This document shows positions 4,726-63,845 of a stretch of DNA of 64,000 nucleotides, piece by piece. The notes beneath the pieces are model-generated. The model saw only the letters and a list, made by a program, of their open reading frames with translations. It was not told the origin of the DNA and made no database searches. The translations under genes and the position numbers were made by a program. Source of the DNA: an uncultured Bacteroidota bacterium (GTDB lineage: Bacteria > Bacteroidota > Bacteroidia > Bacteroidales > JAAUTT01); assembly GCA_963846585.1 (NCBI GenBank), contig CAWJWO010000010.1:5163-69162 (forward strand). The letters are read 5' to 3'. How positions within the stretch are numbered: position 1 is the first letter of the stretch; each line of letters starts with the position of its first letter.

Positions 4726-5481
4726 ATGGAAAACAAACAATTAATACGCAGTTACTGCAGACAATTTAGAATGGGAGGTCTGGCCAATAGCCTGGACCAA
4801 ATGTTAATCGATGCTGAGACAAACAACATCGGATACCTCCAATATACCCTTAATCTCTTTAAGGCTGAAGCCTCGCACAGGGAATACAATGATGTTCAAA
4901 AACGATTGAAAACAGCCAGGTTGCCTCATTTACACGACTTGACAACTTATGATTACTCCTTTGAGAATGGCCTATCAAAAGTAAGATTAAATCAATTAAG
5001 GGAATTTGACTGGCTCGATCAAATTTACAATGTTGTTTTGATGGGATCTTCCGGAACAGGAAAAACGTTCCTGGCAGCAGGTCTTTGTGCTGACGCAGTT
5101 CAAAAAGGATACAAAGCCTACTTTAGAACAATGGAAGAAATTATAAATATGTTGAAAATGAAAGATGTTACTGCTACTGCAATGGCCGATTTTAAACGGT
5201 TAAATAAAGCTAATTTAATTGTTATTGATGATATTATGCTCTTTCCTGTGGAAAAATTACAAGCGGTAACTCTCTTTAATTTTATTAATCAGATTTATGA
5301 GCAAACATCATTTATTATTACAACTAATAAAGCGCCAAGTGAATGGGCTGCAATGCTTAACGATGAAGTTTTAGCAACAGCTCTTCTTGATAGGCTTTTG
5401 TATCATAGTGAAGTAATTAACTTGACCGGGAAAAGCTTCAGATTGAAAAATAGAAAAACAATTTTTGAATCAGAAAATTAA
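4726..5481 (+). CDS. istB: IS21-family helper ATPase IstB
   Basis: Walker A GSSGTGKTFLA and Walker B LIVIDDI. The 251-aa size and position after istA also fit. Confidence 0.9.
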   Translation: MENKQLIRSYCRQFRMGGLANSLDQMLIDAETNNIGYLQYTLNLFKAEASHREYNDVQKRLKTARLPHLHDLTTYDYSFENGLSKVRLNQLREFDWLDQIYNVVLMGSSGTGKTFLAAGLCADAVQKGYKAYFRTMEEIINMLKMKDVTATAMADFKRLNKANLIVIDDIMLFPVEKLQAVTLFNFINQIYEQTSFIITTNKAPSEWAAMLNDEVLATALLDRLLYHSEVINLTGKSFRLKNRKTIFESEN

Positions 5482-5488
5482 TATAATT

Positions 5489-6781
5489 TTAACATTGAAA
5501 ATTGAGCATTATGGTTGCCATTTTTTGTGCATTGCTAATTGCTAAAATTTGTGCAGTTGTAATTACCGACAACACTTGCTCAAACGAAGCTAAATAATTT
5601 TCTGTAGTATCGAGGTTAGTATGACCTAAACTTTCTGAAATAAACGCAATATTTGCCCCGCTGCGCTTTAATACAGTGGCGAAACTATGGCGGGCTGTGT
5701 AAGTTGAGATTTTAGGAAGGTTTAAATTTTTCGCTATTAATTGCATTTTGTCATTTACCAAATGAGTAACATTTTTAATAATGCGTTGCTCGTCAACTAA
5801 GGTAATACCCTCAGTTAAAAAAGGGAATATGTAATTATTTGGGGCTTTGGTTCTATTGCCCCATTTTGTTATTATTTGCTCCATTTGAGGTAATAAAGGG
5901 GCTGAAATTTTCTTTTTATTCTTTGTTTTGCGGATGGTTTTTTGACGGTAAAATGAAATTTCGCCGTTTGATATATCGGAATATTTTAATTTTAAAAGGT
6001 CCACCATATTGATACCATTGCACAAATAGGAGAAAAACCATAAATCACGGCAACGGTCTTCATTCTCTGTTTTAACTTCGTAATGCATTAATTGACCAAT
6101 TTGAGAAAGTGTTAAAGCTAAATTACGACCTTCACCAGTAGGAATTTCATATTTGCCTTTACCAAATGGGTATTGAGCTGCTGTAATATATCCTAGTTCT
6201 TTGCCAATATTTATGATTGACTGCAAAGCTCTCATGTACATTGAAATGGTGGTGTAGCTTTTAGCTTTCTTCTTTTTTTCTTTATCTTCTAATAGCAACC
6301 AGCTTTCAAACTTTTTAAGCCAATCTATTGTAATATCAGAAAATCTAAGTTGATTATTGGTATATAATTTAATACTGTTTGAAGAATACTTATACCAAAT
6401 GGAAGTACCTAATTGCCCTGAATTAATTAATTCCTGAATTTTGTTTTCATAGAATGTGAAAATATTATTATCGGTTCCTTTACCCATTCTTTTATTAAGG
6501 GTATCAAAACTAAAGCCACCAATTTTTAATATGGAATCGATTTGTTCTTCAACCTTGTTTTTGAATGATAAAAGTTGCTCAAATGTTTTTATTGTTGACT
6601 TTTTCTTTGATTTCTCTATATTTGCAAAATCTTCAACTGATAGGTTAATACCAGTTGAATAATAAATACGAGCTCTTTGAAAGGTAACTTTATACTTAAC
6701 TGGATACACATTATCCTTTTTCTCTCTGCGGATATCTAGGTACAATGTACCTGTAACACCAGAATTGGAGTATATTTTCAT
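5489..6781 (-). CDS. Tyrosine site-specific recombinase (phage-integrase family) with its 3' end replaced by IS21 sequence
   Basis: C-terminal catalytic signature TYTARHSFATVLKRSG...LGHTNLDTTENYL (HxxR, H, catalytic Y). The last ~28-30 codons (about 5575-5582 down to 5489) are read out of the IS21 right terminus. Confidence 0.85.
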   Translation of the reverse strand: MKIYSNSGVTGTLYLDIRREKKDNVYPVKYKVTFQRARIYYSTGINLSVEDFANIEKSKKKSTIKTFEQLLSFKNKVEEQIDSILKIGGFSFDTLNKRMGKGTDNNIFTFYENKIQELINSGQLGTSIWYKYSSNSIKLYTNNQLRFSDITIDWLKKFESWLLLEDKEKKKKAKSYTTISMYMRALQSIINIGKELGYITAAQYPFGKGKYEIPTGEGRNLALTLSQIGQLMHYEVKTENEDRCRDLWFFSYLCNGINMVDLLKLKYSDISNGEISFYRQKTIRKTKNKKKISAPLLPQMEQIITKWGNRTKAPNNYIFPFLTEGITLVDEQRIIKNVTHLVNDKMQLIAKNLNLPKISTYTARHSFATVLKRSGANIAFISESLGHTNLDTTENYLASFEQVLSVITTAQILAISNAQKMATIMLNFQC

Positions 6782-6942
6782 AAGGTGTGCAAGTTTTTAT
6801 TGGATACACGATTTGCACACAAATATAGTAAATATAAGGAAATATACGAAAGAAAAGTAAAGTTATTTTGTAGTAAAAGTGCTGTTATTCACGTATTTAG
6901 AAACAAATGCAAAAGAATGAAAATAGAGAAAAATGGGGTTTT

Positions 6943-6988
6943 TATGCATGGCATGCAAGAGGTCGCGAGTTCGATTCTCGCATTCTCC
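6943..6988 (+). other. Orphan 3' fragment of a class II tRNA (variable arm, T-arm, acceptor 3' strand): likely att-site relic
   Basis: Variable-arm-like hairpin TGCATGGCATGCA, T-arm GCGAG-TTCGATT-CTCGC, acceptor strand ATTCTCC plus discriminator A. No complementary GGAGAAT 5' strand, D-arm or anticodon arm lies upstream. It sits about 160 bp from the integrase start codon. Confidence 0.5.
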
Positions 6989-7286
6989 ACTCTTTACTTT
7001 AATTGGCTTCCTGAGGTTTGGAGGCCATTATTTTTTATAATACTTATAAATACTAAGGTTTAAAATTAAAAATAAGGTTTAAATAATACATTAAGTTATA
7101 GATAAACTTTTAAAAGGTTGTATTATACTTCTGTCTTAACGTTGTAACACTTAAAATAAATATATTATGATCAAAATGCAGTTATAGCCCCTTTTTAAGG
7201 CATAGCCGTCAGGTTAATGTCTATATAGAGCAGAATGATAGATATTTAGTGTAAATGTAATAAAATATTAGTGTAATTAAGAGCGT

Positions 7287-8617: not shown

Positions 8618-8814
8618 GATTGAGGTTTTGAAATTCCTATGACAAATATGTAAGATTTTTTGCTTTTATTTACTATTAATAATAATTTATGTGAATAAAT
8701 TGTTGAATTATTAATAAAATTTTTACCACAAAGGGACACTAAGTCAATCACTAAGGTACACAAAGGTGTTTGTTTATAAAGGTGAATCACTAAATAATGC
8801 TTCAAAGAAAATGC

Positions 8815-8937
8815 AATGTCAACTAAGAAAAAGCCAAATTCAAGGCTTGCGAAGTCATAAAAAGCGGAGTTTACTCAAAGTAAATGAGCATTTTATGACG
8901 AGCGTAACGAAGAAGTTGGCTTTTCCTTATTGACATT
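8815..8937 (-). repeat. Stop-codon-adjacent structured palindromic repeat, copy a
   Basis: Imperfect hairpin with conserved cores CTTCGTTACGCTC, CATTTACT-nnn-AGTAAACT and CTTCGCAAGCC (gene-sense strand). Lies 2 nt from the stop of the ABC exporter gene. Homologous to 16164-16285 and 62405-62535. Confidence 0.7.
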
Positions 8938-8939
8938 AA

Positions 8940-10706
8940 TTAGACGATCATGTTCATATTATAATATTTAGATTTATTTTCCATCAATTCTGCATGACTC
9001 CCGATTTCTGCAATCCTCCCTTTTTCAAGGAACATTATTCTGTCAGCTTTCCTGATTGTTGAAAGCCTGTGGGCAATTATAAATGTAGTTCTTCCTTTTA
9101 TTATATCAGCTATAGCATTTTGAATAGCTTTTTCCGATTCAACATCAAGAGATGAAGTGGCTTCATCGAAAATAATTATTTTAGGATCGCGGACCAGGGC
9201 CCTGGCGATGGCAATTCTCTGGCGCTGTCCTCCTGACAATCGGCTCCCGTGTTCGCCAATCATCGTGTCGTATCCATCAGGCAATTGAGTTGCAAATTCA
9301 TCTACCCTTGACATTTTTGCTATTGAAATAAATTTTTCTTCATTTACAGCATCTTCTTCTATTCCATATAAAATATTATCCCTTATTGATCCTGAGAATA
9401 AAATAATATTTTGCGGTACAACTGATAAAAACCGGCGGTATGTTCTCAAATCAAGTATATGCATATTAATGCCATCCAGCAAAACCGAACCACTCACGGG
9501 ATGAATATACCCGATTAACAAACTTACCAGTGTGGATTTGCCTGCACCGGATTCACCTACAATAGCAATACATTCACCGGGCTTTGTCTCAAAAGATATA
9601 TCATTTATTACTGTTTTTTCAGGAGTGTACTGGAATTTTACTTTATTAAACTGAATATGCCCATTAATATTATTTACTTTTTGTTTTCCTTCGTTCATCT
9701 CAATATCCGTACATTCCAGGATTTCTCCCAAGGAATGGATTGAATCAAAGCCCCTGTTTAAATCTGGTGAAATATTTATAATCATATTCACTGAATTAAT
9801 AATCATACCAAAAAATCCCTGGTACATTATTACGTCCCCGATTGCTATTTTACCTTTGTATGCCATATAAGCAGTAACCAATAAACATATGAACTGGAAA
9901 ACCTGGTAGGTTACCCAGGTTGATGCACCAAATACTGCATTAATAACATCGAGTTTTATCCCTTTTTCTTTAACCTTTGCAAATTGTCCGTTAAGTTGAT
10001 TAATTTCAGTTTCTTCAGCTCCATGTGCACGTGTGATGGTTATCATTTGTACCATGTCCGATACCCTTGCTGACATTATCTCTATCTGGCTTCTGTATTC
10101 ACTGTTTCCTTTAGCCATTCCTTTTTGGAAAATCCTGATAAGCAAAGTCGCCAACGGAATAGTAACCAAATAAAAGAGAGCAACCCAATAATTATGCATA
10201 ATTGTAGCTATCATCGCAAATATGATATTGAGTATTCCGGTAAAAACCACATTCACCATCTGGCGTGATAAAATTTCAATCGACTCAACATCACGCAATA
10301 CCTTTGACTGAAGGCGCCCCGATTCGAAATGGGTGTGAAAGGAGATAGTAAGTTCCTGCAATCTTTTAATTAATGAAAACCTCAAACTATTTTCAATTGA
10401 ACGATTTGCTTTACTTAAATATTTTATATAAAGAGTGTGTGTTATAATATTTTGAAAGTAAAGCACAGTGATCAAAACTGAATTAACTATAATTTTATGT
10501 AATGAGCCAGGGCCGTGAGATATTATTGCATTAATGACGTTACCAAGTATTATTGGCAGTATCATTGCAGGAGAATGCTTTATAGTAAGCAGGATGAGCG
10601 ATAATGTTATATTTTTCTTTTCATGAACATAAATTGATAAAAAGGCAAATATCTTGTTCTTCTTATTGAAATTGAGCTCATGAATTTTTTTTTCTTCAAT
10701 TTTCAT
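8940..10706 (-). CDS. ABC exporter, fused permease and ATPase (MsbA/type I exporter-like)
   Basis: Six-TM N-terminal half, Walker A GESGAGKST, signature LSGGQRQRIAIARAL, Walker B IIIFDEATSSLD. Confidence 0.9.
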   Translation of the reverse strand: MKIEEKKIHELNFNKKNKIFAFLSIYVHEKKNITLSLILLTIKHSPAMILPIILGNVINAIISHGPGSLHKIIVNSVLITVLYFQNIITHTLYIKYLSKANRSIENSLRFSLIKRLQELTISFHTHFESGRLQSKVLRDVESIEILSRQMVNVVFTGILNIIFAMIATIMHNYWVALFYLVTIPLATLLIRIFQKGMAKGNSEYRSQIEIMSARVSDMVQMITITRAHGAEETEINQLNGQFAKVKEKGIKLDVINAVFGASTWVTYQVFQFICLLVTAYMAYKGKIAIGDVIMYQGFFGMIINSVNMIINISPDLNRGFDSIHSLGEILECTDIEMNEGKQKVNNINGHIQFNKVKFQYTPEKTVINDISFETKPGECIAIVGESGAGKSTLVSLLIGYIHPVSGSVLLDGINMHILDLRTYRRFLSVVPQNIILFSGSIRDNILYGIEEDAVNEEKFISIAKMSRVDEFATQLPDGYDTMIGEHGSRLSGGQRQRIAIARALVRDPKIIIFDEATSSLDVESEKAIQNAIADIIKGRTTFIIAHRLSTIRKADRIMFLEKGRIAEIGSHAELMENKSKYYNMNMIV

Positions 10707-16007: not shown

Positions 16008-16163
16008 ACGTTAGGTTTTTAGTTTTTAGGCTATTAGGCTTTAGGCTTTCAATACTAATATAAACAATAAAATTATAAAATGTTTAATTTTCTGATCATA
16101 TCTTTAAAATATAATTTGTAAGTTGTAATATTATTTACAATTAGTGTTTCATTGGAAAGTCAG

Positions 16164-16285
16164 GTGTTTAAATTATAAAACTTGTAGCCGAGGCTTGCGA
16201 AGTTTTAAAATCAGGAGTTTACTATAGTAAATGACTGATTTTAAAACTAGCGTAACGAAGGGTACGAGTTTTATAATTCAAACAC
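16164..16285 (-). repeat. Stop-codon-adjacent structured palindromic repeat, copy b
   Basis: Has the same conserved cores as 8815-8937. Its inner helix AGTTTTAAAATCAG/CTGATTTTAAAACT differs from the other copies but still pairs. Overlaps the GH1 stop codon by 1 nt. Confidence 0.7.
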
Positions 16286-17706
16286 TATTTTAAGAACTCC
16301 TGGAACCAGCATGCGGAATCCTTAACAACCCTCAGCTGGGTTTTAAAATCATTATAGATTATCCCGAACTTTGGCTGGTAACCATAAGTCCATTCGAAAT
16401 TATCAATCAGAGTCCAAATGAAATAACCTGAAATGTTAACGCCTTCATTTTTTGCCTTTAATACGGATTTAATATAATTTTTAAAGAATTTGATCCTTTC
16501 AGTATCATGAATTGATCCTGCATTCAGATGGTCTGTAAAGGCCGCGCCATTTTCGGTAATAATTATTTCTTTTACCGGATACCTTGAGAATTGTTTAATA
16601 ATTTCGTATAAACCTTCGGGATAAACTTCCCATCCCATCCGGGTATATTCTGTAGTTTTATCGTGGTGTTTTACCTGGTTGGCCCATATGTACGGGACAA
16701 TACCGGCTTTACCTATAACTCTGAAATAGTTTTGCAATCCTATAAAATCGAAGTCGAATTTCAGCTTTTCCTCATCGCCGGGTTGTATATGATTCTCAAT
16801 CTTTTTTAAAAACGGAAGGTCATTTACCGGATAGCCCATTCCAAGAGTTGGTTCAATAAACAGACGGTTCAGTAGTACGTCGATGCGTTTGGCCGCCTTT
16901 TCATGTTTCGGAATCTGTTTATAAGGCTCTACGTAGGAACATGATAATGCATTTCCAATCCTGGCATTTTTCACATTAGATCGTATCACCCTGCCACCTT
17001 CAGCCATAGAAAGCATTACGTTATGCACTGAAGATAGGAAACTGTTTAAACCTATATGACCGGGGGCATGTAAACCGGTGAAATATCCCAATATTGTAAT
17101 AGCGGCCGGTTCGTTAATAACGATCCAATTTTTTACCCTGTCGCCAAATCTTTGTGTACAAAGATTCGTATAATCTGAAAACCAACCTACTATATCACGG
17201 GATTTCCAGCCACCTTTATCTTCAAGCATCTGTGGCAAATCCCAGTGATACAATGTAAGCCAAGGAGTGATACCTTTTTCCAGGCAGGTATCAATTACAT
17301 TATTGTAAAAGCCTATCCCTTTTTCATTGACCCGACCCGTTCCTTCCGGCATAACCCTTGACCAGGCAACTGAAAACCGGAAATTTTTAAAGTTAAGGTC
17401 ATTTACCAGTGAAATATCATTTTTGTATAAATGATAAAAATCAGAAGTTATGTCAGCATTGCTTCTGTCTTTAATACGGCTCTCCTTTTCATGAGTAAAC
17501 CTGTCCCATATTGATTCTCCTTTGCCGTCGGTATTCCAGGCACCTTCAGATTGAAAGGCTGATGTAGTAATCCCCCATAGAAAAGAAGGCCCAAACATTT
17601 CTTTTGTTAACTCAGGGTCGGATTGAAATGCTTTGGCAATCCAACTGCTAAGGTACAATCCTGAAACACCTGTACCCAATATTTTTAGAAAATCCGACCT
17701 GTTCAT
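16285..17706 (-). CDS. GH1 beta-glucosidase
   Basis: Acid/base motif VINEP and nucleophile motif ITENG, plus a typical GH1 N-terminal FLWGxxTSAFQxEG segment. N-terminal export signal present. Confidence 0.92.
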   Translation of the reverse strand: MNRSDFLKILGTGVSGLYLSSWIAKAFQSDPELTKEMFGPSFLWGITTSAFQSEGAWNTDGKGESIWDRFTHEKESRIKDRSNADITSDFYHLYKNDISLVNDLNFKNFRFSVAWSRVMPEGTGRVNEKGIGFYNNVIDTCLEKGITPWLTLYHWDLPQMLEDKGGWKSRDIVGWFSDYTNLCTQRFGDRVKNWIVINEPAAITILGYFTGLHAPGHIGLNSFLSSVHNVMLSMAEGGRVIRSNVKNARIGNALSCSYVEPYKQIPKHEKAAKRIDVLLNRLFIEPTLGMGYPVNDLPFLKKIENHIQPGDEEKLKFDFDFIGLQNYFRVIGKAGIVPYIWANQVKHHDKTTEYTRMGWEVYPEGLYEIIKQFSRYPVKEIIITENGAAFTDHLNAGSIHDTERIKFFKNYIKSVLKAKNEGVNISGYFIWTLIDNFEWTYGYQPKFGIIYNDFKTQLRVVKDSACWFQEFLK

Positions 17707-44897: not shown

Positions 44898-44922
44898 GGA
44901 AAGCCAATTTTTTCGTTACGCC
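44898..44922 (+). repeat. Truncated copy of the stop-codon-adjacent structured repeat (5' arm only)
   Basis: GGAAAGCCAATTTTTTCGTTACGCC matches the outer stem plus the TTCGTTACGC core of copies a and c, then diverges. Confidence 0.45.
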
Positions 44923-61491: not shown

Positions 61492-61546
61492 GTAGTGCTT
61501 GTACATAAAGCCCGTAGCCTGTGACCATAAGAATAAGATAAGGAAT

Positions 61547-62407
61547 ATGAAAAAGATATTTTGTTTTATTGCATTATTAACTTTTGTCATTTTGATAACA
61601 GCCTGCCAGAAAGATAATCAGAATAATTATGTGACTTTTCAACCTTCCATTATAGTGGAAGGCTCTATCGAACAGGGTGGATATCCGCTTGTATACCTTA
61701 CAAAAAATATTCCCTATTATTCAAATATTGATTCTTCCGATTTTATAAATATCGTAATCAGACAAGCTAAAGTTGTAGTATCGGATGGTAATAATTTGGA
61801 GGTATTGTCCCTGATGTATGACCAGCAACATTTTCCTCCTTATTATTATCGTGGAATTTTTTTAACCGGACTGGCTGGACATACCTACCAGCTTCAGATT
61901 TTTTATGGAACTGATACTCTTAGTGCTATAACCACAATTCCAGCTCCCGTTCCCATTGACACTGCCTGGCTGCAATCCACTAATGGAAATCCAGATCAGG
62001 CAATTGTATTTGCCACTATTCATGATGATCCGTTAGTTGTAAATTATTACAGGACATTTACCTGTACCCCGTTAACTCAAAGTGGGTTTTATCCCACACT
62101 GGAATCAGTTTTTAATGATAAGCTCTTTAACGGGAATACTTATACGTTTAAACTAAACAAGGGACCTGAAACCTACATCAATTTGAAGAACTTTAACGAT
62201 TATTTCAGTTTGACAGATTCCGTATATATTAAAATCTGGACAATGCAGCAGACACAATATACTTTTTGGCTGAATATTCAATCTGAAATAATTAATTCTG
62301 GAAATCCATTTGCCACATCTTATCATAATGTAATCTCAAACATTCAGGGCAACGGATTAGGTATTTGGGGAGGATATGGTGCTACAGTAAAATATGTACA
62401 CAAATAA
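61547..62407 (+). CDS. DUF4249-family lipoprotein (usual partner of this TBDR type)
   Basis: Lipobox ILITAC after MKKIFCFIALLTFV. The C-terminal GNGLGIWGGYG segment and the position directly after the TBDR fit. I prefer the ATG at 61547 to the ORF-track start at 61499. Confidence 0.7.
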   Translation: MKKIFCFIALLTFVILITACQKDNQNNYVTFQPSIIVEGSIEQGGYPLVYLTKNIPYYSNIDSSDFINIVIRQAKVVVSDGNNLEVLSLMYDQQHFPPYYYRGIFLTGLAGHTYQLQIFYGTDTLSAITTIPAPVPIDTAWLQSTNGNPDQAIVFATIHDDPLVVNYYRTFTCTPLTQSGFYPTLESVFNDKLFNGNTYTFKLNKGPETYINLKNFNDYFSLTDSVYIKIWTMQQTQYTFWLNIQSEIINSGNPFATSYHNVISNIQGNGLGIWGGYGATVKYVHK

Positions 62408-62535
62408 TTGATATCAGTAAGAAATCACCAATTTTTTCGTTAGGTTTGTCAGAAAAATGCTCATTTACTTAAAGTAAACTGCGCTTTTTCTGCCTTCGCA
62501 AGCCTCAAACTTGGTGATTTCTTATCTGATAATTA
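62405..62535 (+). repeat. Stop-codon-adjacent structured palindromic repeat, copy c
   Basis: Starts on the TAA of the DUF4249 gene. Outer stem TAATTGATATCAGTAAGAAATCACCAA / TTGGTGATTTCTTATCTGATAATTA, with the same conserved cores as copies a and b. Confidence 0.7.
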
Positions 62536-62636
62536 GTTTTATTGCCTATAATAAGTGTTTCTTTATAGTCGGGTGTTTGGATCATAAAGTTCGTAAACGA
62601 GCGTATTGAAGGCTACGGACTTTATGTACAAACATT

Positions 62637-63845
62637 CTAATTGGATGAGTTAAAAGTTATACCCTGAAATATCTTCGCCAATGAGGAAGAAAATCCGGCA
62701 CCATAATACGAATCGAATGTACCTTTTGATTTGTCTGCAAATACAAATTCTAATTCCATACCCCAGCTAGTGCTAATACCATTCAAATTTTCAACAGGAA
62801 CGGCCACTATGGTTGCAATTTTTTGATTTGAGCTTACATAATATAATATAAGTGAAGCATCATTGTTCAACAATCTGGCCTCTTGGGTGGCAACTGAATC
62901 GGGATTGGTACCGGATTCAATACCAGGTAGTTTTTTACCTATATCCGTATAGTTTACACTCCCTGCCCATGCTATATTTCCAAACTGGAAAGTGGTATTA
63001 GCTGTTTGAAGTATTGATTGAACAAGAGTAGCTGTATCAATAGTTGTTTTTGAAAAATTGCCGGTATTAGTTCCGGAAAATTGTGCTAGGGTATTTGTTC
63101 CGTTAAGGAAACTAAAGGTCATAACAACTGAAGTCGTTGTATATGTCCAGCTTGCCTGAAGTTTATATGGGGATAACAGAATAAAACCACTCACACTGGA
63201 AGGAATTCCACTGCTGCTGTATGATGCCGTAGAGCTGAATTCAGCTACTGTACTATTGCTAACGTTAAGCGTAATGCTAAAACTACCGGGGTAATCACCA
63301 TTATATCCGGAAATAAGAGATACAGCCTTAACTCCGGTATATTGAATTGTTAACTGCGCATCGTTGGTGGTTCCACCTGACTTGGAAGGAAAGTTAAAAA
63401 CAATATCCGAAGAATTTTTCACTGTATCGAATTGTTGGGTTCCCGGATTCCAGGTAAAAGTATACTTTATACTATTGAATAATTGTGTAAGCGTGGTATC
63501 CGAGCTTAAATTTATCGATTCAACCGCTTCATTAACATTACCATTTTGTTCAGATATGGCAGTTAATGGTTTAATGAGCCTTGCACTCTGTGAAGATTCT
63601 CCTCCTGATAAGCTAACAAAGTGTTCTAAAACAGAAATTGCATTTACATTGATCATACCTTGAACTCCATTGCTAATGTTCTGACATTCAGTGGTCAGGT
63701 CAGTTTTTTGTTGGTCTACCGTTTCAGTAGTGTAAGGAGATGTACCCGGATTTGAACTGGTAGAAGAATTATCAGATTTTTTACAGGATGTGATGGATAG
63801 GAATACTAATAAACACAAAGTACTAAATTTCATTGCTTTTATCAT
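62637..63845 (-). CDS. Hypothetical lipoprotein
   Basis: Lipobox SITSC. Ser/Thr-rich beta-type sequence, no family recognised. Confidence 0.6.
   Translation of the reverse strand: MIKAMKFSTLCLLVFLSITSCKKSDNSSTSSNPGTSPYTTETVDQQKTDLTTECQNISNGVQGMINVNAISVLEHFVSLSGGESSQSARLIKPLTAISEQNGNVNEAVESINLSSDTTLTQLFNSIKYTFTWNPGTQQFDTVKNSSDIVFNFPSKSGGTTNDAQLTIQYTGVKAVSLISGYNGDYPGSFSITLNVSNSTVAEFSSTASYSSSGIPSSVSGFILLSPYKLQASWTYTTTSVVMTFSFLNGTNTLAQFSGTNTGNFSKTTIDTATLVQSILQTANTTFQFGNIAWAGSVNYTDIGKKLPGIESGTNPDSVATQEARLLNNDASLILYYVSSNQKIATIVAVPVENLNGISTSWGMELEFVFADKSKGTFDSYYGAGFSSSLAKIFQGITFNSSN

Follow-up and report, generated by a model that had tools for sequence, protein, structure and literature searches.

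The window analysed here is a 64,000-nucleotide stretch of DNA from an uncultured Bacteroidota bacterium of the order Bacteroidales (contig CAWJWO010000010.1, positions 5,163 to 69,162); its source genome is a 4.07-Mb draft of 20 contigs with a G+C content of 34.5%. Three full copies, one internally deleted copy and one 22-nt fragment of a palindromic repeat occur in it, and the full copies sit at the stop codons of protein-coding genes. These repeats are very probably (we put the chance at roughly 85%) a non-autonomous transposon, i.e. a miniature inverted-repeat transposable element (MITE), with a unit of ∼145 nt that contains no gene and folds into a long hairpin. The closest known system is ERIC (IRU), and the repeats are a MITE family of an already known kind. 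Two features are still surprising: copies dock on stop codons in the sense of the gene by a rule so strong that it exceeds what the supply of AT-rich target sites provides, and the apex is invariant and ERIC-like.

Unit structure and mobility

In order, the unit consists of a 6-bp target duplication, a left terminal repeat (GTGTYTG), an imperfect palindrome of ∼122 nt (121–124 nt) with a conserved core, a tail of ∼19 nt, and the duplicated hexamer. The target hexamer is AT-rich (TAWWTA), and its commonest form is TAATTA. At its far end the tail repeats the right terminus, CAGACAC. Inverted relative to each other, GTGTYTG(TCC) on the left and (GGA)CAGACAC at the end of the tail form the terminal inverted repeats, of the overall type GTGTYTG...CARACAC. 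The inner palindrome, TTCGTTAYGC ... TCATTTAC-loop-GTAAACTCC ... CTTCGCAAGCC, is kept across Bacteroidota. A first-pass annotation, made from the letters of the window alone, had described three full copies with the common cores TTCGTTA(C/G)G, CATTTACT...AGTAAACT and CTTCGCAAGCC. All of these are present in the alignment of copies, and the blocks TTCGTTA, TCATTTAC, AGTAAACT and CTTCGCAAGCCT are invariant in the three window copies when read in gene sense. The tail, extending ∼15–20 nt beyond the palindrome, had been overlooked, as had the internally deleted copy. Right flanks are kept within a subfamily (A-type GAGTTTTCTTAnAAAgCAC, B-type TGACTTTAAAGACAGACAC), and both types end in an inverted GTGTCTG, followed by a hexamer resembling the left one.

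An iterated nhmmer search of the source genome gives 98 matches, 74 of them near full length, across all large contigs. They fall into subfamilies A (31 copies of the pure Aa type), B (20, Bb) and C (9), together with chimeras that combine A-type outer arms with a B-type inner stem, or the reverse. The outer stems, at first thought to be specific to each copy, sort into these three subfamilies; since the types recur among the ∼98 genomic copies, the stems are lineage-specific. Pairwise identity within subfamilies is 82–87%, so the copies are old and are not recent duplicates.

Target duplication was tested on younger copies in two genomes of the same order, belonging to different families (G040 and G033). 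There the tail is exactly 19 nt long in 26 of 36 copies, and in 22 of 36 the hexamers on the two sides agree fully, compared with a mean of 6.9 and a maximum of 14 in 5000 permutation trials. The target is TAATTA in 19 of the 36. Asymmetric hexamers (TATTTA, TAAATA, TAGTTA, TACTTA, TTATTA; n = 16) are the more telling class, with 10 perfect direct repeats and no inverted ones.

Presence/absence polymorphism, proposed in the first-pass annotation as a check, is found between related strains. In Marinilabilia, the empty site of MSL42 reads CTTATTTAG followed directly by TTCC, while the filled site of JCM 21150 reads CTTATTTAG-unit-TATTTAGTTCC, with TATTTA(G) duplicated. The reverse case also occurs: MSL42 has a unit exactly on the stop codon of a LytTR regulator gene, and JCM carries the empty allele. 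The protein end (...DINLISK*) is equal in both alleles, the stop being TAA in the empty allele and the junction TAG in the filled one. A pair of Anaerophaga strains adds a third case, less clean owing to a difference of 4 nt. A fourth Anaerophaga/Marinilabilia site (L026) is too rearranged to be read as filled or empty, and congeners of the window organism are too distant to serve as empty-site controls, the flanking ABC gene being 65–70% identical. One suggestion of the first-pass annotation was a miniature mobile element that targets stop codons. Its mobility is borne out by the terminal inverted repeats, the 6-bp duplications, the filled and empty sites and a patchy, burst-like distribution. 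What is targeted is not the stop codon as such but the AT-rich TAWWTA, a hexamer that often includes a stop or makes one complete.

In the window, the ORF (open reading frame) lists place all three full copies, in gene sense, at the ends of the genes named in the first-pass annotation, and a Pfam scan agrees with the identities of these genes. Copy 1 (minus strand throughout) has a 121-nt palindrome of subfamily A with the conserved core at 8816–8936 (nhmmer E = 1.6e-29). The first three bases of its left target hexamer TAATTA (8937–8942) are the TAA stop (8940–8942) of an ABC exporter gene (8940–10706). Its 19-nt tail, TGCATTTTCTTTGAAGCAT (8797–8815), ends in a degenerate second right terminus, and the right hexamer TATTTA (8791–8796) equals the left one at 5 of 6 positions and is probably a decayed target duplication. 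The sole ORF overlapping copy 1 is an antisense frame of 55 aa. Copy 2, also on the minus strand, has a 122-nt palindrome of subfamily B (16164–16285; E = 6.9e-25). Its left hexamer is AAAATA (16286–16291), the final TA of which, together with the first G of the element, forms the TAG stop (16285–16287) of a GH1 gene (16285–17706). A 20-nt tail (CTGACTTTCCAATGAAACAC) and the right hexamer TAATTG occupy 16138–16163, and the two hexamers match at only 3 of 6 positions.

Copy 3, on the plus strand, has a 123-nt palindrome of subfamily A (62411–62533; E = 1.6e-28) preceded by TAATTG (62405–62410), within which TAA (62405–62407) is the stop of a DUF4249 gene (61499–62407). In copies 1 and 3 the TAA thus stands 3 nt ahead of the palindrome, while in copy 2 the TAG overlaps the first base of the element. 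The 15-nt tail of copy 3 and the hexamer TAATAA fill 62534–62554; the hexamer is held in common, tail to tail, with the internally deleted copy that adjoins it. This B-type copy (62555–62637, minus strand) retains the outer arms (62573–62637; E = 7.7e-4 for the left arm) and a tail (62555–62572). It is sense to a convergent gene (62637–63845), on whose TAG stop, made of the target TA and the first G of the element, it is docked. The hexamer beyond it, CAATTA on the minus strand (62638–62643; TAATTG on the plus strand), is the same as that at 62405–62410, so that direct TAATTG repeats enclose the composite formed by copy 3 and its deleted neighbour. The entire 229-nt spacer of these two convergent genes (window positions 62405–62643 with the hexamers) consists of two tail-to-tail elements, each palindrome lying on the stop of its own gene. 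Elsewhere in the window, a truncated copy had been reported at 44898–44922; a match to the left arm does exist there, with its extent corrected to a 22-nt fragment (AAAGCCAATTTTTTCGTTACGC, 44900–44921, plus strand).

Composite arrangements occur in other organisms as well. In Anaerophaga thermohalophila DSM 12881 (L111, locus 6942–7236) and in L101 (∼1565–1700), units stand head to tail in tandem, the second starting in the end hexamer of the first, and there are internally deleted units, consisting of arms only, between TAATTA and TAATTT. The target regenerated at unit ends seems to draw further insertions.

Docking on stop codons exceeds the supply of target sites

Genes were called with an ORF finder scored by codon usage (3323 genes, 86% coverage), and a copy was counted as docked when its 5' end lies within −3 to +8 nt of a sense stop codon. 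The upstream gene is in sense for 63 of 74 copies. Measured from gene end to element start, the distance is −3 for 23 copies, in which the junction TAG serves as the stop, and +1 for 15, in which a TAA stands one base upstream. Docked copies number 51 of 72, against 7.0 expected if each were placed uniformly within its own intergenic gap and in random orientation. In tandem gene contexts there are 36 sense and 8 antisense copies (p = 2.5e-5), and in convergent contexts the docked end is the 5' end in 25 of 27. Counted by end, ∼44 copies meet a stop with the 5' end alone and ∼4 with the tail alone; ∼7, lying between abutting convergent genes, are docked at both ends. The orientation reported for the window prevails in the genome. 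The census also gives a within-subfamily identity of 82–87% and strong covariation between the arms, and is not that of simple recent duplicates placed irrespective of gene direction.

The genome offers 4965 unoccupied TAWWTA sites between genes and 458 that overlap stop codons. If non-disruptive sites were used at random, 8.4% of insertions would fall on stops, versus 71% observed, an excess of ∼8-fold over the target-site supply. Expressed as occupancy, ∼10% of stop-overlapping sites are filled, compared with ∼0.4% of intergenic TAWWTA sites. Both the excess at stops and the sense orientation are well above what the motif provides. The rule also holds elsewhere: for copies drawn from many taxa, with sense ORFs of 80 codons or more considered, 21 of 57 are docked, compared with 2 of 57 in a mirror test, and for G040 and G033 pooled the figures are 18 of 34 and 1 of 34.

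The left junction, TAAWTA followed by G, supplies TAA and, in the following frame, TAG. Because the hexamer starts with TAA and ends in TA, and the element starts with G, each insertion brings both stops, in two frames, to its 5' border; in B-type copies the third frame receives a TAA as well, at +13. Where the target overlaps the native stop, the protein is left unchanged. C-terminal Pfam domains are complete in most of 10 docked genes scanned, as seen from the domain ends in GH1 (472/473), HSP20 (155/155), adh_short_C2 (246/248), DUF4249 (296/302) and FtsX (395/405).

Protein integrity and target sequence predict no particular orientation, given symmetric termini and a palindrome as the most frequent target. 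Orientation relative to GC skew is 32:16, while the figure for genes overall is 58%; this correlation is weak, indicating that orientation follows the genes and not replication. The gene-linked bias points to some transcript-level or transcription-linked effect. The mechanism that we favour would be a strong filter acting on the co-transcribed hairpin: a sense hairpin whose base is in reach of the terminating ribosome would be tolerated or useful, and other placements of the hairpin would be lost. A wider proposal, which we regard as speculative and on the whole unlikely, is that docking is no by-product of the AT-rich target. Either the insertion machinery would read gene ends and their direction, or a sense hairpin near the terminating ribosome would have been co-opted in Bacteroidota as a gene-end module that governs termination or the stability of mRNA 3' ends. 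Under both versions, the near-invariant ERIC-like apex would be the hallmark of a superfamily that spans phyla and is recognised by a conserved protein.

Pairing of the arms and rival explanations

Each full window copy folds into one long hairpin, with energies of −45.2, −45.6 and −49.0 kcal/mol (z = −8.6, −9.8 and −9.2 against dinucleotide-preserving shuffles; −8.5 to −9.8 overall). The reverse strands fold about equally, at −46.8, −57.7 and −41.4 kcal/mol. In an alignment of 68 copies, 92.6% of cells pair, versus 70.3% after shuffling, and when the partner columns are slid, pairing falls to 32–50%. Changes occur on both sides in 27 of 35 pairs, and much of this covariation lies between subfamilies and sub-lineages. 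Some pairing (G-C and a conserved U-G) exists between the two facing cores, which had earlier been taken for an unpaired internal loop. Stem mismatches that occur in no more than one or two copies comprise 20 G:U and 22 A:C, i.e. there is no excess of G:U. This symmetry is as expected where there is no wobble-tolerant selection on either RNA strand, and the pairing thus carries no RNA-specific signature. The view of the first-pass annotation, that structure is selected rather than sequence alone, is upheld as to covariation and fails as to a signature of RNA.

The pairing is equally consistent with a DNA palindrome held symmetric during propagation. Template switching at quasi-palindromes copies a change from one arm onto the other, and the lineages that keep symmetric ends are those that go on transposing; either process therefore yields 'compensatory' change without an RNA function. 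Arm complementarity is best explained at the level of DNA and element propagation, by symmetric termini and concerted change of the arms, and selection on an RNA fold is not needed.

A vertically maintained, immobile RNA element of the 3' untranslated region, i.e. a terminator, a 3'-end stabiliser or a protein-binding hairpin selected for its fold, would agree with the sense orientation, the placement at stop codons, the very stable hairpins and the covariation in 27 of 35 pairs, as well as with a T-rich stretch a few nt past the stem in subfamily A. We nevertheless consider it very improbable. Target duplications and empty sites contradict it as the sole explanation, congeners carry 0–10 copies against 82 in the source genome, G:U pairs are not in excess, and the antisense strand folds equally well or better. 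Copies also lie within tandem gene pairs, where termination would be polar. The transcribed 3'-UTR element suggested in the first-pass annotation may still apply as an additional, exapted role of a mobile unit. Pattern scans for a canonical terminator (a G+C-rich stem and a T run) are negative at copies 2 and 3; at copy 1 a terminator-like match is found, though it is a small hairpin inside the right arm only. Rfam gives no match in the window at gathering scores. When permissive filters were applied to one copy, the sole match had E = 1.4 and is ascribed to chance.

The hairpin architecture and strong orientation bias recall single-strand elements of the REP/RAYT or IS200/IS605 type, which insert 3' of a short word without duplication and are oriented by replication. 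A kept left flank (TAAW) beside a right flank that at first looked unconserved gave the same impression. The right flank has turned out to be the same hexamer as a direct repeat, empty sites reveal the duplication, there is no GTAG or CGTC tag, and orientation tracks genes and not GC skew, all of which makes such an origin extremely unlikely. Also to be considered are the attC sites of integrons, recombination sites behind cassette genes, which are imperfect palindromes of 57–141 nt located right after a stop codon, gene-oriented, with conserved inner motifs and variable paired stems. The repeats fit this general description, and the GTTGGGC of subfamily C fits GTTRRRY. That word is on the wrong side, however, and lacks an RYYYAAC partner; instead of forming cassette arrays, the copies are scattered singly beside housekeeping genes over all large contigs, and they have flanking duplications and terminal inverted repeats. 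The probability of an attC origin is close to nil.

A different question is whether docking is set at insertion, by MITE machinery that aims at gene ends in a fixed direction, either through coupling to the termination of transcription or translation or through a DNA feature of the coding-spacer boundary. We regard this as possible, though doubtful. It accounts for docking being equally frequent in the least diverged copies and in those with perfect duplications (G033, G040), for its presence in convergent pairs (25 of 27), where no promoter needs protection, and for the occupancy of stop-overlapping sites (∼10%, versus ∼0.4% for intergenic TAWWTA). Opposed to it is the finding that, out of three polymorphic insertions, no more than one sits on a stop; of the others, one lies ∼100 nt downstream of a stop and one in a non-coding spacer away from sense ORF ends. 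In Anaerophaga and Marinilabilia no more than ∼20% of copies are docked, and the hexamer is the sole conserved flanking motif. To our knowledge no cut-and-paste transposase reads gene direction, which also counts against it.

Against the reading of the repeats as a MITE whose docking is shaped by selection stand several results. Direct hexamers in the source genome itself (7 of 74 copies) are not above those of permuted flanks, the duplications being mostly decayed; because this match is not significant, the evidence for duplication comes from the other genomes. No autonomous partner, nor a transposase with matching ends, was found in the source genome (strict and relaxed searches for inverted termini 0.5–5 kb apart) or in ∼120 fetched loci, and the 6-bp flanking repeat could in principle stem from the crossover region of a tyrosine recombinase and not from a DDE transposase. 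The share of docked copies is no higher among the more diverged ones (16 of 20, 11 of 20 and 15 of 21 copies, from least to most diverged), and docking is also seen in copies of G033 and G040 with perfect duplications. A targeting bias therefore fits at least as well as slow selective filtering. As for the cause of docking, it is one that we infer, leaning towards selection on the co-transcribed hairpin.

Candidate partners in the source genome were chance pairs, one of them enclosing parA/parB, and the fetched loci gave noise. Many accepted bacterial MITEs are likewise without a known partner.

Related systems, distribution and neighbouring repeats

The likeness to ERIC (enterobacterial repetitive intergenic consensus; 127 bp, also a MITE) lies in the size, the long imperfect palindrome and the intergenic, co-transcribed location. 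An E. coli ERIC copy was retrieved by means of the standard ERIC primer sequences, and its minus strand reads CCAGTCACTTACTTATGTAAGCTCCTG in the apical module, where subfamily B has CCAGTCATTTACTATAGTAAACTCCTG; one compensatory pair of the apical stem differs, C-G versus T-A. These 27 nt are nearly identical, with a local alignment score of 32 compared with a maximum of 30 in 1000 shuffles. The covariance model aligns this ERIC copy end to end (20.7 bits, E = 5.7e-5 on 844 nt), while under stricter filters it finds no match in the whole E. coli chromosome. The resemblance of the apex suggests that the two families may share descent, which is not established because of the missing chromosome-wide match. 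There are also differences: ERIC duplicates TA and the Bacteroidota repeats 6 bp, and the latter have GTGTYTG termini, a 19-nt tail with a second right terminus, and hosts in another phylum. De Gregorio et al. reportedly found in 2005 that Yersinia ERICs adjoining or overlapping stop codons favour one orientation. ERIC is described as a MITE with TA duplication and an orientation-dependent effect on the stability of upstream mRNA (PMC2229807).

Correia (NEMIS) elements of Neisseria are hairpin MITEs of ∼100–155 bp, similarly with terminal inverted repeats and a TA-containing target. They are co-transcribed with their neighbours, and the RNA hairpins are processed by RNase III (PMC2229807). Their sequence is unrelated, they duplicate TA, and they carry IHF sites and promoter elements; a stop-docking rule of such strength is not described for them in PMC2229807. 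The RUP element of Streptococcus pneumoniae is a 107-bp MITE with ∼100 copies per genome, stops in all frames and a TA-containing target. A candidate partner, IS630-Spn1, is known for RUP, whereas none was found for the Bacteroidota repeats, and the sequences are unrelated. REP (BIME) sequences resemble the repeats as dispersed intergenic palindromes after genes. Liang, Rudd and Deutscher are said to have found in 2015 that E. coli REPs within ∼15 nt of a stop interfere with terminating ribosomes, and this is a possible analogue of how a docked hairpin might act. According to PMC3733652, REPs are 20–40 bp long, with a GTAG/CGTC tetranucleotide tag and without terminal inverted repeats or target duplication. 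The Bacteroidota palindrome, in contrast, is 122 nt long and untagged, with duplications.

The search of the genome and its relatives with a covariance model, recommended by the first-pass annotation, gives 82 copies in the source genome and shows the family in 17 of 41 relatives. Twelve congeners have 0–10 copies, and counts of 39, 43 and 74 come from genomes that belong to different families within the order. An exact scan with the core pattern returns at least 119 stretches. Among the matches listed are the cultured Anaerophaga, Marinilabilia and Geofilum, as well as Draconibacterium, Alistipes, Tidjanibacter and Bacteroidaceae metagenome-assembled genomes (MAGs), and also Saprospiraceae, Cryomorpha, Schleiferiaceae, Roseivirgaceae and one Chlorobiota MAG. 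In a sample of 200 genomes of the phylum, strong matches are mainly within the order of the window genome. A literature search for the core word returned unrelated primers only. In one family of another class (f47; genomes G050–G233, 1.8–2.8 Mb), every sampled genome has 1–14 full-length matches of 40–60 bits, which represent a related but more distant family.

Although ERIC and other hairpin MITEs were discovered more than 30 years ago, their transposase, the role of the conserved centre and the preference for gene ends in one orientation remain unexplained. The present family offers a clean test case, with hundreds of copies in many Bacteroidota, including the cultivable Anaerophaga and Marinilabilia, a defined 6-bp target, a quantifiable placement and an ERIC-like apex. 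For annotation, it means that in carrier genomes the final base of many TAG stops belongs to a mobile element, and that long hairpins right after genes should not be taken for terminators or new RNA families. If the docked hairpin affects mRNA ends, it would amount to a form of gene-end control that is widespread in this phylum, whose translation signals are unusual.

Several other repeats are associated with the element in the source genome. A second palindromic repeat, of ∼73 nt with the core CCCATGATAnnATAATTGATTTTAAAGGTATCATGGGA, is inserted within copies of the main element, splitting them (C7:272300–272372, C7:6500–6650, C15:287972, C15:391481, C8:29321, C18:381064). Its insertion points are symmetric AATT or GAAnTTC positions, in one arm or the other, with apparent duplication of AATT. 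An extra apical hairpin of ∼20–28 nt, GGGACACGCACAAGGCGTGTCCCTAC or GTGACACG...CGTGTCAC, is present in several copies (C1:201388–201531, C18:195840–195983, C15:149389–149529, C8:58922–59065, C17:127583–127696); its reverse complement starts with GTAG, as GTAG-tagged REP palindromes do. Truncated copies at C3:191966, C18:82233 and C19:36672 end abruptly at G-rich repeats of the form GGGGCCAGGGACTAGGGGCTAG. Tandem arrays of 7–9-nt words (CAACCTCTA, CACTAAG/CACTATG, CAACTAA, TCTTTTG) begin right after the element tails in many copies, for example in the right flanks at C18:444592, C7:355732, C2:112743 and C17:164604. In Anaerophaga thermohalophila str. Valhall (L071, ∼5450–5620), the right flank of one element holds a different repeat of ∼150 nt, GTCAATACAATAAGTCAGTTAAAAAAGGCCTAAATGCAGAGAGGCAATGACGCAAAG..., which recurs dozens of times in the genome of DSM 12881 (G041).

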